From positions 321,532,001-321,596,000 of the forward strand of contig OZ024742.1 in assembly GCA_964016885.1 (NCBI GenBank): 64,000 bases of DNA, in the 5' to 3' direction. A program made the position numbers and the translations under genes. The stretch is from Eledone cirrhosa (lineage: Eukaryota). The notes beneath the pieces are model-generated. The model was not told where the DNA came from and made no database searches. It saw only the letters and a program-made list of their open reading frames with translations. Each line of letters begins with the position of its first letter. Position 1 is the stretch's first letter. Of the stretch, positions 6,806-30,326 are shown piece after piece.

Positions 6806-6997
6806 GAAAAAGTATGACCCCGACGGCAGAGCTCAAGCCGTTTCGACGGCTATTTCTGAGTCCAGAAATAGCCGTCGAAACGGCTTGAGCTCTGCCGTCG
6901 GGGTCATACTTTTTCATATTTCCCACCTTACTACTCTAAGTATTGAGTACTCTAGTGCGTTATGGTCCATTTGGTTCCTTACCACAATTCCTTCGTT
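6806..6997 (+). mobile_element. Family A fold-back element with 3' half of a hammerhead ribozyme
   Basis: Perfect 53-bp arms (6806-6858 / 6863-6915); right arm reads GAAACGGC-TTGAGCTCT-GCCGTC/GGGGTC (stem III and GUC site); (TA)n on both sides. Confidence 0.8.
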
Positions 6998-7007
6998 ATA
7001 TATATAT

Positions 7008-7125
7008 ATATTCATTAGTTAAGCAAAACAAGACCACAAATTTCACAAGGAAGACATTATTAAAATCTTTTAATAATGTCTTCCTTGTGAAATTTGTGGT
7101 CTTGTTTTGCTTAACTAATGAATAT
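7008..7125. repeat. Perfect 58-bp-arm palindrome from the end of the family F element
   Basis: Arms 7008-7065 / 7068-7125 with a TC spacer; the left arm recurs unfolded at about 23214-23272. Confidence 0.9.
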
Positions 7126-10100
7126 TTCCAGCTCTGTGCACCTAACCTCTGCATGAACCCAGCCACCTAGCTGCCTTCCACTGCATATTGCACATTGAGC
7201 ACATGCCTTTACGCTTTGGCTTCTAACTAATTCACCAATCTCTCTTCTCCTCTCCTATCTCCATCTCTCTCTTTAAGATTGGTTCCTCTTGAACTGTGTA
7301 TATATATATAGAGAGAGATATAGTTGTTATGTAGTGTAAGGGTTTAGCGCCAAGAAACGGATAGATAGGGAGAGACAGAGAGGGGGGATAGAGAGAAAAT
7401 AGATAGACTGACCTGTAAGATGTGAAAGCGGGTGGATTCAGTTTGATTACAAAACAATTGAATCTTAGAGTAGAATGTGAACATTGAGAGATGAGAGGGA
7501 GGCGGGAGAAAGCGAGTGAGAGAGAAAGTGAGTGAGAGGGGAAAAGGGAGAGAGAGAGGAAAGGATTTTTATCTAGGGTAGGCGCCAAATTGGCAGAGTC
7601 GTTGAACCTAGGATAGAATGAATGTTTTGCGGTATTTGTTCCAGTTCTCTGCTCTCTGAGTTCAAATCCCGCTGAGATCTATTTTGCCTTTCATCATTAT
7701 GAGGGCGATAAAAAAAGTACCAGTCTAGTACTGGTGTCGATTCTTCCTCTGTATATCTTCCTCGCTTCCCTCTCCCACGTTCTACCCTTCTCTGGAAGAA
7801 ATCTACTGTGTTCAGGCTTAAAATGCCCCCAAAACGCTATATGCCACTACGGCGCCCCTACCATTCCTCCAGGATTTACACGACCTTGCTATACCATACT
7901 AAGGGTGCGGCATCAAGAACAGGATAAAGAGATAAAGAGATAGATAGACCTGATGAGGTGAGATAGCGAATGGCTTTATTTTGATGTCATAACAATTAAG
8001 AAAGAATTTATTTAATTTCTGACCTACATCACTGACATACTACTTCACTAATTAGTGGTGGTGGTAGTGGAGCCGATGGTGGTGGTTGTGGCGCCGGTGA
8101 TGTTGCTGGTGGTAGAGATAATAGTGAGCATTAGGGTGATAATGATAATGATAATGATAATGATAATGATGATGAGGATGATGATGATGATGATGATGAT
8201 GATGATGATGATGATGCATTAGATTTTTGCGCTTTCGTAATTAAAATAGATGGCTGGTGGTAGTGGTAGTGTTTTTGGTTGTTTAACTCGAGGTCACACC
8301 ATATCTAGCCGTGACCTTCCCTACTGTATTCTATATGCAGAGAACCCACGAGAACATTATCCAATGTGTCTTCTATTGGGTGGTAAGATGTATTTTCATG
8401 GAAACTTTGCTGTTAATAACTATTTGTATTGGTTTCTGGGGTAAATTAAAGTATGAGCAATACATACATGTAGACACGTACACACATACATAGACACATA
8501 CACATATACACACATACACATACACAGACACAGGCACATACACAGAAACACACACACACACATAAAACCCATAAATCTATATTCGACCCCGCTCACCAGT
8601 CTCATATACTATACAAAGAAAAGTAAAAATCACACTCTATACTTCAAAATCATATCCCACAACCCTCCCGACAATACAACCACCAACCCGCACCAATTAC
8701 TGCTGTGACGGACATGTTATGTAAATGCTATAATAATCTTACACACACCTCTCTCTCTCTCTCTCTCTCTCTCTCTCTCTCTCTCTCTCTCTCTCTCTCT
8801 CTCTCTCTCTCTCTCTCTGCTATTACTGAAAGTTGAGGTAATTAGTTAATAACAGACATGTCAACTGTTAAAAGCCTATTTAGTAATTCGGAGTAGAGTT
8901 CTACCTATCGCTTTTGAATAGATTCTGTGTCTGTGTGGAGTTTGTATCTTTTTAGTCTGCAGCAACCTGTGTTTTACATGCCATTTGTTTCCACCACTTA
9001 TCTTTGATTAAAACGATTAAAATGGATCAATTTGAAGAAGACATTGGTTATGTATCAGCCAGCTCCTAACGAGCCGTATATTCCGCCAGTCATAATTGGA
9101 AAGAGCAAAATATTGAATATAATTGACAAATTGGTATATTTTGGCAAGTGAACTCTCAGGCTCACTAGATATCGAGATTCCCCCCCCCCCCCAAACATCT
9201 GATGCTTTTGATTAAAACGATTAAAATGGATTTATCTCCTGTAGTATTTAGTAGATCGATAGTGGAGTCAGGTTTATTACATCGATAAAGACCTCGAGTC
9301 AATCATCTATGAAACGTATGTAACGTTCGATATGAAATAAAAAATATTTAAAAGTGAAACTTCATTATCTCATACATAATATATAAACTGAGCTATAACA
9401 AGAGTTCCTACTGATTCCACCTCCATTAATCAACAAAATTACCGAATACACTGCATGTATACACACACAGATATATATATATGTATATATATATATATAT
9501 ATATATATATATATATATATATATATATATACACACACTACTCACACACACATATATATATATATATATATATATATATAGAGAGAGAGAGAGAGAGAGA
9601 GAGAGAGAGAGGGGGGGGGGCGAGAGAATATAGAGAAGTGACTCACGAGTTCATATATATATATTAGTAAAAAAGAAAAAAACAGTAGAAAATGCTAAAG
9701 GGATTTTCTCTCAGAATAACAGCAAAACATTTATTTACAAAATAGGAATTTCCGCATTATTTGTACCGGTTTCAGCTTGTAGGTTTCTTCATACGACGGA
9801 AGTGTATAATGCAATTAAATTGCATATTAATAAGAACAATAAGAACAATAAGAATACTTCCACTATTAATGGTGACACAGCTAATTCTTTTTTTTCTTTT
9901 GTTTCCTTTTCTTTTTTATTATTGCCGTTATTTTAGTCGTCATTATTATCATCATTATTATTGATGTAAATAAAATTAACAATTATTCACACAATATACA
10001 AAACACTTGCGTATCATCAGGATCGTTAAAATGGATTGAATTCAACTCAAACACGTAACAAGAAAATTAGCAAGTACTGAATATAGGCAAGCAATGAAAA

Positions 10101-10851
10101 AAGCAGACGAAGTTAGTGGTCGTATAAATACAGTGAAAAAGTATTTTTCTTTAGGCTTATGAGGCATAAGGCAGTATAGATTATTTCGTGTAAGCGTTGG
10201 AAGAACAACTAACTGTACACTGGTAATATGCCACAACAGATAGAAAGAGAAAAGAAACAAACCGTCCAAAGCCCACAACTGGTTGCTGTCGAGATCCCAA
10301 GCGTACTTGGACCGCGTAAAGCCGAGCTCCTGTTGCAGCTGGTGTCGCTAGCCATCATCTGCAGGAATGCTTTTGCAGTCTTGTCTGCGGGGCGCAGCCT
10401 CTTTACCGCCGCGTCCTAAGCCCAGAACCCAATCGCCCTCCCTATTCTTCTGTGACACTAGAATCTTTGCCATTCCTTCCCTTTTCCGGTTTTTTTCTTT
10501 ATATTTTCTTATTTTACATTCCATTCTTTCTTCTCAATCTAAATTTTCAATTTTTTTTTTCTTTTTCTATTAAACTGTATTTACATGATATATTCCATAA
10601 GTATGAAATTGAGTTAGAAATGGAAGCTTTCGCCGTATTTTGACTAAAGAAACTGCCAATACCCATCCTTTTCCATTTAGGTTTCCCCACTATAAGGCTA
10701 ATTTTCTTTAGTCAAAATACGGCGAAAACTTCTGTTTCTAATTCAATAGTAATTAAGTAGTGTTGCATTAATAGACCTGCAATAGGTTTCAGCCTTTCCC
10801 CTCCATTAAGTCTTAACTACTTTCAACTACACTTCTTGACAATATTATATC

Positions 10852-28316: not shown

Positions 28317-28410
28317 AATTTAATGTAGAAATGGCTTCTACAGGACTAGAACTGTTTCTGTTTCTATCGAATGAAACAGTTCTAGTCCTGTAGAAACCAC
28401 TTCTCTCTCT
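28317..28410. mobile_element. Family E fold-back element
   Basis: Arms 28332-28358 / 28373-28399 carrying GAAACAG ttctagtc CTGTA/GAA; inverted twin at 30230-30326. Confidence 0.72.
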
Positions 28411-28772
28411 CTATATATATATATAAATATATGTATATAATATATATAAATATATGTATATAATATATATATATATATATATAAATATATGTATATAATA
28501 TATATAAATATATGTATATAATATATATAAATATATGTATATAATATATATATATATATATATAAATATATGTATATTATATATATAAATATATTCTCTT
28601 TTACTCTTTTACCTGTTTCAGCCATCCGGCTGAGGCCATGCTGGGGCACCGCCCTTGTGTATATAATATATATAAATATATGTATATAATATATATATAT
28701 ATATATATATATATATAGCGGCGATGAATTAGTTTTGCGAGGTTTTTTATATGAAATCGTGTGTCGAAACAG

Positions 28773-29818
28773 ATATTGTTATATTTGGGGAGGGTCATAT
28801 TTGCGTAATATTGCCAGAATTAATAACAGAACACACTCACTGTTTGGTTGGTTTTCGCTTCTCGCTGTCTTTTATATATATATATCTGCGATCTAACTTA
28901 CTCGGTCCTCAATGTTGCCATTGACTGACCGGCGGTCAAAAATAATACAGATACAATATAGACAAACACATATATATATAGTTTACATAAATCTTTCGTT
29001 GCACATCTGCAACATCGTCAGTGGTGTTATATTCATTGTTCCTCCTGTTGTGTTGTATGTCTACGCCATTTTTTTTTGTTCAGTCCGTCTATAAAAAACG
29101 GGTCAGTACTATACGAACATGCTAGACAACATCATGACGGTAACATAGACAACATAGAAATTAGAATAATATCTAAACATAGGAATGACCCAGCAGATAG
29201 GCAAATCAGAGAGGCCAGTGAAATAGAAATTAGAAGACCAAAGCTAAACAGAAAGAATGAGTGGAACAACAACAACACCCAAACAAACAACACTGACCTA
29301 AGAGAAGTATAAATAAATAAGTAAATTAAATTAAATAAAATAAGATAAATAAATACATACACAAGCACATAAACACACACTAGTCACCCAGCAGACACAA
29401 CACTATACACACTAGTCACACATCACACACGCAAACGCATGCGCAAAGAAGACAAAATAAAATAAGATAAACAAACAAGCAAATAAATAAATAAATATAT
29501 AGACGGACTGAACAAAAAAAAATGGCGTAGACATACAACACAACAGGAGGAACAATGAATATAACACCACTGACGATGTTGCAGATGTGCAACGAAAGAT
29601 TTATGTAAACTATATATATATGTGTTTGTCTATATTGTATCTGTATTATTTTTGACCGCCGGTCAGTCAATGGCAACATTGAGGACCGAGTAAGTTAGAT
29701 CGCAGATATATATATATAAAAGACAGCGAGAAGCGAAAACCAACCAAACAGTGAGTGTGTTCTGTTATTAATTCTGGCAATATTACGCAAATATGACCCT
29801 CCCCAAATATAACAATAT
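28773..29818 (+). mobile_element. 5'-truncated Penelope-like element with inverted pLTR
   Basis: Apparently identical 321-bp inverted arms (28773-29093 / 29498-29818) around a GIY-YIG C-terminal fragment (SVLYEHARQHH..RQIREASEI..PKLNRKNEW); hammerhead motif CTGACGA-T-GTTGCA gatg TGCAAC-GAAA at 29570-29597. Confidence 0.88.
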
Positions 29819-30229
29819 ATATATATATATATATATATATATATATATATATATATATATATACGATATTAACAAATGGAAACTATATTTATAAAACCAT
29901 ATCTATTTTATTATACATATTTCAAGGATACCATTTGTTAATATCGTATATTTACTCCAAATACTTGTCGAGTGCTTTATAGCAGTTATAAAAATATTTG
30001 CTTGTTGTTTCCCAACAATTTAAATAGAACTTTTGCATATATATATATATATATATATATATATATATATATATATATATATATACATACATAGATAGAT
30101 ACATACATACATACATACATACATACATACATACATATATATATATATATATATATATATATATATATATATATATATATATATATATATATATATATTA
30201 TATACATATATTTATATATAGAGAGAGAG

Positions 30230-30326
30230 AGAGATAGAGAAGTGGTTTCTACAGGACTAGAACTGTTTCATTCGATAGAAACAGAAACAGTTCTAGTCCT
30301 GTAGAAGCCATTTCTACATTAAATTT
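30230..30326. mobile_element. Family E fold-back element, inverted twin
   Basis: Reverse complement of 28317-28410. Confidence 0.72.

Follow-up and report, generated by a model that had tools for sequence, protein, structure and literature searches.

We analysed 64,000 nucleotides of the Eledone cirrhosa genome (contig OZ024742.1, bases 321,532,001–321,596,000, in a 3.0-Gb genome; hereafter the window), a stretch rich in TA, CA and TACA microsatellites in which a first-pass annotation had noted a cluster of hammerhead-like mini-elements. The hammerhead motifs are real and far more frequent than chance would give. They very probably lie in the pseudo-long terminal repeats (pLTRs) of many families of Penelope-like elements (PLEs), and the mini-elements that carry them would be 5'-truncated, often head-to-head copies of those elements. 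The family labels used below (F1–F11 and C2–C6) are our own, and L-numbers denote genomic loci examined. Nine window pieces (F1–F8 and F10) served as DNA queries and the window endonuclease as a protein query against the genome, after which longer stretches were read; F9 and F11 were examined within the ∼1.9 Mb of loci so examined.

Motifs were counted with a descriptor for type I that requires CUGAN(N)GA or UUGAN(N)AA as the core and at least 4 pairs in each of stems I and II. The window contains three complete motifs (24675 and 27851 on the plus strand, 14794 on the minus strand) against 0–1 in each of 20 block-wise dinucleotide shuffles; a fourth, at 17422 on the minus strand with a stem I of 3 bp, is accepted at a looser setting. 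In an unbiased sample of 60 evenly spaced 10-kb stretches (600 kb in total), 30 complete motifs were found, compared with 0–4 in each of five shuffles. At least one motif is present in 19 of the 60 stretches, and bootstrapping over stretches (17–46 motifs) yields ∼0.7–2.2 × 10^5 motifs genome-wide, centred on 1.4 × 10^5. The 3' halves of the families, allowing one mismatch, occur 75 times in the sample and 0–1 times in the shuffles. With two mismatches there are 19 in the 23.5-kb span from 6806 to 30326 and 105 in the 600 kb, 6–12 of the latter being background, a density ∼fivefold higher in the span, for which the search patterns were partly drawn from the window itself. The Rfam Hammerhead_1 cut-off is passed at 18 genomic loci, all belonging to F5; in the window, the best 150 of 265 Rfam rows include no hammerhead and consist of microsatellite or hairpin noise, and an inverted-repeat finder was likewise swamped by microsatellites. 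About 11 dispersed type I families are represented in the span. The proposal of many distinct families thus stands, as does the expectation that their frequency would exceed that in shuffled DNA. An origin of the motifs as decayed palindromes or by chance matching in AT-rich DNA can be dismissed with near certainty: most window copies do have broken or half cores and three of the named remnants were not confirmed, but the shuffle controls already refute it, and both the 18 loci above the Rfam cut-off and the exchange of stem pairs between families speak against it.

A type I core with three helices is present in the window copies of F3, F5, F9 and F11, in variant form in F8 and F10, and in genomic copies of F1, F2, F4, F6 and F7. 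The variants affect the core (UUGACAA, of the U3-A8 type, in F1; CUGAAUGA in F3; CCGAUGA in F8, whose copies are 97–100% alike) or the stems, with a U-U at the base of stem II in F2 and F7 and a 2-bp stem I in F10 that is identical across young copies. Several families hold fixed core variants, and these are predicted ribozymes. Pairing was tabulated for 71 distinct copies of one motif type, which are related to one another rather than independent. Positions 1–5 of stem I are each paired in 62–68 copies and positions 1–3 of stem II in 60–68, with U-A, C-G, G-C and A-U types all represented. The first pair of stem I is U-A in 52 copies and C-G in 12, the second pair of stem II is A-U in 34, G-C in 21 and G-U in 11, and the centre of stem III alternates among AUAU, AUGU and GCGC. 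Stem covariation, named beforehand as a check, is thus seen between families and is weak within F7 (26 copies). The description of stem III as palindromic fits four of the 11 tabulated copies (F2, F3, F8 and F11), whereas F1 and F7 have long stem III hairpins; in F6 the stem reads AACGUU when A14 is included, and the F4 family has ACGAUCGU, from which the tabulated F4 copy differs.

The copies in and around the span, most of which have half or mutated cores, are as follows.

6802–6997, plus strand: F1 fold-back stub, inverted arm 6802–6858 head to head with a main arm from 6859; hammerhead 3' half only (GAAA at 6877, cut site after 6899) and a 79-nt tail.
7009–7310, plus strand: F8 fold-back, extreme 3' end and tail, no hammerhead.
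12570–12660, minus strand: decayed F6 copy at 78% identity, covering the remnant reported at 12611.
13050–13792, plus strand: F2, an ORF-less (open reading frame-less) 440-nt tandem family, inverted arm 13050–13332 and main arm 13333–13792 across the unit junction; an 18-nt deletion took out the hammerhead core, which most copies retain; GAAA at 13562.
14662–14915, minus strand: F3 fold-back with a complete hammerhead, its 8-nt core (CUGAAUGA) at 14794, GAAA at 14766, stem III palindromic.
16736–16905, minus strand: F4, an old family (∼83% between copies) whose stem-loop II is long; this copy has a decayed core and its GAAA at 16817.
17237–20490, minus strand: F5, a 5'-truncated, putative Hydra-clade element; ORF end 20490–19057 holding the reverse transcriptase (RT) thumb, a CxCX5C linker and GIY-YIG, then a ∼1.6-kb 3' untranslated region (UTR) and a hammerhead at 17422–17391.
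21085–21268, plus strand: F6 stub, putative Neptune/Nematis-type family; core at 21146, G12 mutated.
21780–21885, plus strand: rearranged F7 stub, core at 21849, 3' side cut off, inverted 3' half.
22947–23190, minus strand: second F6 copy, stem II broken.
23216–23622, minus strand: F8 stub, putative Hydra-clade family; variant core CCGAUGA at 23466–23460, ∼95-nt stem-loop II, GAAA at 23364.
24600–24800 (outer limits approximate), plus strand: F11, complete hammerhead at 24670–24724, previously overlooked.
27830–27945, plus strand: F9, complete hammerhead, core at 27851.
28316–28404, plus strand: F7 fold-back, 3' half only.
28715–29815, no single strand: F10 head-to-head insertion, inverted arm with tail 29093–28715, main arm 29093–29815 with the last 72 endonuclease codons and a hammerhead at 29570 (core complete, stem I only 2 bp).
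29856–30035, plus strand: fold-back stub, 3' half only, from C2, another abundant family; also previously overlooked.
30238–30326, plus strand: F7 fold-back, 3' half only.

Of the sites listed in the first-pass annotation, 14750, 17388 and 27841 are complete, 23350 is complete as a variant and 29570 has a complete core with a 2-bp stem I. The others are partial: 6877, 28373 and 30278 are 3' halves only, the core is deleted at 13538 and decayed at 16801, G12 is lost at 21142, stem II is broken at 23034, and 21846 has a core but no 3' side. As to its four remnants, 12611 is a remnant of F6 (78% identity), and the other three were not confirmed as hammerheads: 9760 has only GAAACCGGUA and one relative, 10723 belongs to a fold-back family in which no core was seen, and 48628 has no relative in the ∼1.9 Mb of loci examined. 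At 20925–21050 and 10600–10760 there are fold-back stubs that belong to two other repeat families; both have TA flanks, and in neither can a hammerhead be recognised.

The nature of the mini-elements is indicated by what lies upstream of them in longer copies. F5 copies elsewhere contain frames of 779–912 aa with an RT (YRDD) and an endonuclease, one hammerhead preceding the ORF and another following it by 1.6–1.9 kb; their motifs are RIRWR, ADKT, CNCRVSINC (CxCX5C), CNLC (CxxC) and CPH (CxH), with no CCHH. The end of an endonuclease, with the motifs CNCRYPNAC, CDLC and CQH, lies 403–414 nt upstream of the F8 query in seven loci. F1 continues upstream into a Hydra-type ORF in L063 and L368, where only the frameshifted 3' part of the ORF was observed. 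By their motifs, F1, F5 and F8 appear to be Hydra-clade PLEs. F10 is very young, its 40 best matches being 98–100% identical; it occurs in 4.12-kb tandem units with intact frames of 1,213–1,217 aa that have a CX4CxxC linker (CTNRKCIIC), a CCHH-type endonuclease and two Cys before YIG. F6 is situated ∼400 nt behind a decayed ORF of Neptune/Nematis type (CSRSRCNTC frame) in L370 and L371. The same kind of evidence would make F10 and F6 Neptune/Nematis-type elements, Neptune and Nematis not being told apart. Five of the 11 families are therefore linked to ORFs, three of them of apparent Hydra-clade and two of apparent Neptune/Nematis type; for F3 the link is indirect only, through an inverted ORF piece in L114, and a family that shares the stem III of F4 sits behind a Hydra ORF in L191 and L199. 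Since longer copies of F1, F5, F6, F8 and F10 run into a Penelope ORF, the mini-elements are best understood as 5'-truncated products of autonomous elements.

These results bear on several earlier statements about the window. Two GIY-YIG elements are present, as claimed, at 19057–20490 and 29094–29309; the F5 ORF scores for GIY-YIG with E = 5e-4, just below the Pfam cut-off, and its relatives are labelled reverse transcriptase or GIY-YIG. The attribution of the hammerheads to Penelope-type elements is upheld by the five families that continue upstream into a Penelope ORF, and it is also true that most window copies lack an ORF. Both GIY-YIG elements in the window are themselves 5'-truncated and cannot be the source of the mini-elements. 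No RNA run was listed as holding F10; contigs from four sequencing runs that partly cover it are uninformative about expression.

Two observations on coding families stand apart. L266 encodes, on its minus strand, a 1,130-aa in-frame chimera whose N-terminal half is of F10 type (Neptune/Nematis) and whose C-terminal half is of F5 type (Hydra). In L390–L398, at ∼1690–1820 in match orientation, a young Hydra-type family (95–97% identity between copies) has GAAACGGUCGUA and no canonical 5' core, the best candidate for which is UUCAAGA; the hammerhead may have been lost or altered throughout this family.

The copies share a target and a layout. In the 600-kb sample, 56 of 72 family matches have (TA)4 within 130 nt downstream, compared with 18% of random positions, which bears out the (TA)n context originally described; this figure replaces a first count (42/89) made with loose patterns. 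The 3' ends fall at two fixed points per family, directly on (TA)n. Most of the 104 F1 arms end at +20 or +99, counted from the cut site, and F8 and F10 copies likewise occur with or without the tail. An inverted partner within 600 nt was found for 34 of 54 F1 and 41 of 64 F7 matches (matches not fetched for that family), and in these pairs one arm is typically short and the arm opposite it long. The insertion unit is a pLTR tandem with an inverted 5'-truncated copy and an optional tail, the tails measuring 56–150 nt and exceeding the 30–40 bp in print. For an element of the green anole, the accessible text of PMC11167929 shows uncleaved RNA to be the main substrate and the tail to be bounded by two internal RT start sites.

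The 5' ends were examined next to the cut site. Match sets consisting of the top 30 for a family's own query were excluded from its end counts, having been selected for likeness to that query, together with L368, L369 and 12 loci that duplicate the window. The 5' ends obtained by pairwise extension were dropped, TA runs and shared inverted arms being confounding, except for the inversion counts; the C2 rows of the end analysis included false matches to TA runs and were not used. Of 42 tail-anchored F1 arms from loci not fetched for F1, none has its start 5 nt or less from the cut site: twelve end at +10 to +33 (some through subfamily mismatch), five at -6 to -21, 22 at -26 to -44 and three further up. 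Among GAAA-anchored F1 arms, 67 of 72 end at -23 to -45, in stem-loop II and short of the 5' core, and five go further. It is because the arms end inside stem-loop II before the 5' core that F1 presents half cores. Short (+20) and long (+99) F1 arms halt in a common zone, so the stop is set by position and not by length. Of 21 F7a arms, eight reach -42 to -46, which is the outer edge of stem I, eight end at -31 to -39 and one at -6; the remaining four are long, continuing copies that were used as references. The cleavage site as the 5' end of copies was rejected for F1 on the 0/42 count; this comparison is inapplicable to short arms and to F7, in which only ∼20 nt remain beyond the site. In the window, the inverted arm of F2 does start 2 nt ahead of the site, but this is an isolated instance, and no pattern of the kind was seen. 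At the level of genomic ends, F1 thus argues against cleaved RNA as the template.

A refinement of the PLE explanation is that these walls represent run-off, with priming just behind the 5' pLTR and the complementary DNA (cDNA) ending at the 5' end of an RNA that starts from an internal promoter. Besides the F1 stop zone, shared by short and long arms, and the F7a cluster, there are initiator-like YYANWYY words at both walls, with the A at -41 in F1 and at -45 in F7a, and the accessible part of PMC2377424 describes a Drosophila element with an internal promoter in its pLTR. Such words are common, however (3–7 per 200 nt in most references), and the search for them was post hoc. In C3 a CATATG palindrome, not an initiator word, marks the cluster of ends (-120 to -139), and the copies of F5, F6, F8 and F10 are longer and show no wall. 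Divergent subfamilies can also cut alignments early, and a structural block or snap-back in stem-loop II could produce an equal pattern. A spliced exon joined to the F7a ends was looked for, and no shared upstream sequence was seen. We consider run-off a serious candidate whose chances fall somewhat short of even.

F2 differs from the families with ORFs. It consists of a 440-nt ORF-less unit arranged head to tail in up to ∼2 units (L082/L086, L101 and L106), with a longest stop-free stretch of 67 codons, and the window copy and others span the unit junction. The core CUGACGA is kept in most of 30 fetched copies, and stem III is palindromic. As in the coding families, copies have inverted arms, are flanked by TA and end 3' at one of two fixed points, unit position 317 or 373. 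F2 is likely a non-LTR (non-long terminal repeat) retrozyme-like family, an ORF-less tandem unit with a type I hammerhead per unit, to judge from its sequence organisation. In one locus, F2 follows on the endonuclease and 3' UTR of a Hydra element that lacks its own 3' end, a fusion junction present in one of 40 matches; the simplest reading of this single case is a template switch by the Hydra enzyme. L103 was considered as an autonomous F2 parent and rejected, because 39 of the 40 matches lack the junction and run on into another 3' end. Two more tandem units, each containing a single complete hammerhead, occur in L068 (201/668 as oriented, 467-nt spacing) and L262 (8870/9354, 484-nt spacing) and are candidates for more retrozyme-like families.

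The first-pass annotation had proposed an independent retrozyme-like RNA population. Extended to most families, this would mean that multimeric transcripts of ORF-less units are cleaved by their own hammerheads, form circles and are then returned to the genome by Penelope enzymes. F2 fits such a scheme in its ORF-less tandem, intact family core and palindromic stem III; the unit at 467-nt spacing in L068 is similar, and the F2 copy fused to a Hydra 3' part can be counted on the same side. As a general account, however, the scheme is already refuted for F1, F5, F6, F8 and F10, which run into ORFs. No short tandem monomer was seen for any family other than F2, the only one shown as an ORF-less tandem unit, and no F1 arm among the 42 starts at the cut site. 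For F3, F4, F7, F9 and F11, neither a tandem monomer nor a direct ORF link was found in the loci examined. We regard independent retrozymes as an improbable explanation for most of the families.

Under the preferred explanation, that of truncated PLE copies, the element endonuclease would nick a (TA)n tract and the reverse transcriptase would copy only the end of the RNA, which would be uncleaved at that hammerhead. By analogy with the anole element, the two 3' ends of each family would correspond to two internal RT start sites. Both nicked strands may prime a cDNA, and the cDNA ends may then be joined by microhomology. F2 would be a non-autonomous 440-nt unit moved in trans by PLE machinery, and the pile-up in the span would reflect repeated insertion into TA tracts, each insertion preserving the tract. 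Several points weigh against this explanation or parts of it. Pfam gave no match to two full-length ORFs, and the placement of families in clades is by motifs and not by a tree. Compensation within F7 is slight, the third pair of stem III being changed on both sides in one of 26 copies. Target-site duplications are unreadable in (TA)n. In the ∼1.9 Mb of loci no ORF was linked to F4, F7, F9 or F11, which could be non-autonomous. Finally, the accessible text of PMC3846280 argues for self-priming, as opposed to twin priming, in the formation of inverted copies.

The F7 fold-backs at 28316–28404 and 30238–30326 are 100% identical, inverted and 1.9 kb apart, flanking the F10 insertion, and in L191 ∼55 nt of flanking DNA is copied inverted across a TA run. 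Together, these two cases suggest that a nicked (TA)n end can prime on itself.

Much of this resembles known systems. Like the minimal hammerheads described in the accessible part of PMC4209133, those studied here are of type I, with many families per genome and mostly single or opposite-strand copies, which are ascribed there to truncated elements; a short palindromic helix III, an extra base after A9, the U3-A8 core variant and a 2-bp helix I variant are also common to both. They differ in number, with ∼1.4 × 10^5 complete motifs (0.7–2.2 × 10^5) here compared to 2,000–9,000 in that source, and the CCGAUGA and CUGAAUGA cores, the U-U at the base of stem II and stem-loops II of 60–110 nt are found here and not in the text of it that was accessible. 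Up to 120,000 retrozyme copies are given for the axolotl in the available portion of PMC7229834, so the hammerhead load in this genome is high and not without precedent.

The Hydra clade, as presented in the accessible text of PMC8557442, shares with F5 the RW(R), DKT and CxCX5C motifs, the lack of CCHH, and CxxC and CxH around the catalytic E and N, as well as hammerheads and a (TA)n target; the part of its supplement that we consulted lists an octopus Hydra element, Hydra-1_Obim, with a (TA)n target. In contrast to the lengths below 3 kb general in that description, F5 units measure ∼4.8 kb, with ORFs of roughly 900 aa and a 1.6-kb 3' UTR; pLTRs are present, and several families here have dozens to hundreds of young copies. 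F10 agrees with elements of Neptune/Nematis type in its CX4CxxC linker, in a GIY-YIG core that includes two Cys and is followed by His residues, in its direct and inverted pLTRs and tail, and in an N-rich insert that recalls those of rotifer elements (PMC3846280, accessible sections). F2 resembles the non-LTR retrozymes covered by the accessible parts of PMC7229834 and bioRxiv 10.64898/2026.07.22.740005 in being an ORF-less, low-GC tandem unit that coexists with PLEs, and is unlike them in its Penelope-type ends, inverted arms, TA target, atypical stem II base and Hydra fusion. The closest mechanistic parallel is Poseidon of the green anole, studied in vitro, for which two internal RT starts that define the tail, an uncleaved template and an AT-rich target are reported in the text available to us (PMC11167929). 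That work is biochemical and concerns one element, whereas here the signature is read from genomic ends and includes a sharp upstream stop zone in two families. The accessible portion of PMC13282606 reports 31 recently active PLE families in Octopus vulgaris and does not contain the word 'ribozyme'. The literature covered, which leaves out most subscription papers, yielded no paper devoted to hammerheads of octopus genomes or to a 5' stop zone of pLTR stubs. The features of the window are stubs of known kinds of PLE in a known (TA)n target, together with one retrozyme-like family.

The window also contains pieces of long interspersed nuclear element (LINE) type at 1098–3380, 5751–6302, 12026–12487, 34617–35441 and 62426–63616, three of which have RT, zf-RVT and endonuclease matches in Pfam. 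Exons of a host gene, ending in KRRVHFCDF, lie at 55481–56788, with a likely zinc-finger exon downstream at ∼58700–58900; the stub-rich zone is upstream of this gene, which we take to be a Kruppel-like factor. Outside the window, L265 has on its minus strand a 540-aa helicase-like frame with a GGTGKT motif, presumably a Helitron piece.

More broadly, and with less confidence than we attach to run-off by itself, some 10^5 stubs may record how PLEs act in vivo: priming on two strands at two sites near the 5' end of the RNA, synthesis through the uncleaved ribozyme as far as the transcription start, and head-to-head joining of the cDNAs. Solo pLTRs would then be a built-in by-product and cleavage would not shape the insert, with a 440-nt retrozyme riding the RT of the Hydra clade and one template switch. 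The role of the hammerhead in endonuclease-bearing PLEs is stated to be unclear in the accessible text of PMC8557442, and the young, high-copy families with fixed ends described here make that role testable from sequence plus one library from cap analysis of gene expression (CAGE). How (TA)n is targeted could be studied biochemically with the intact, near-identical autonomous copies of F10 and F5. Young families maintain natural core variants (CCGAUGA, CUGAAUGA and UUGACAA), and the F2 fusion provides a candidate link between a retrozyme and a Hydra enzyme. Stubs of 60–400 nt would likely be misfiled in the repeat annotation of such genomes as unknown repeats, short interspersed nuclear elements (SINEs) or miniature inverted-repeat transposable elements (MITEs).

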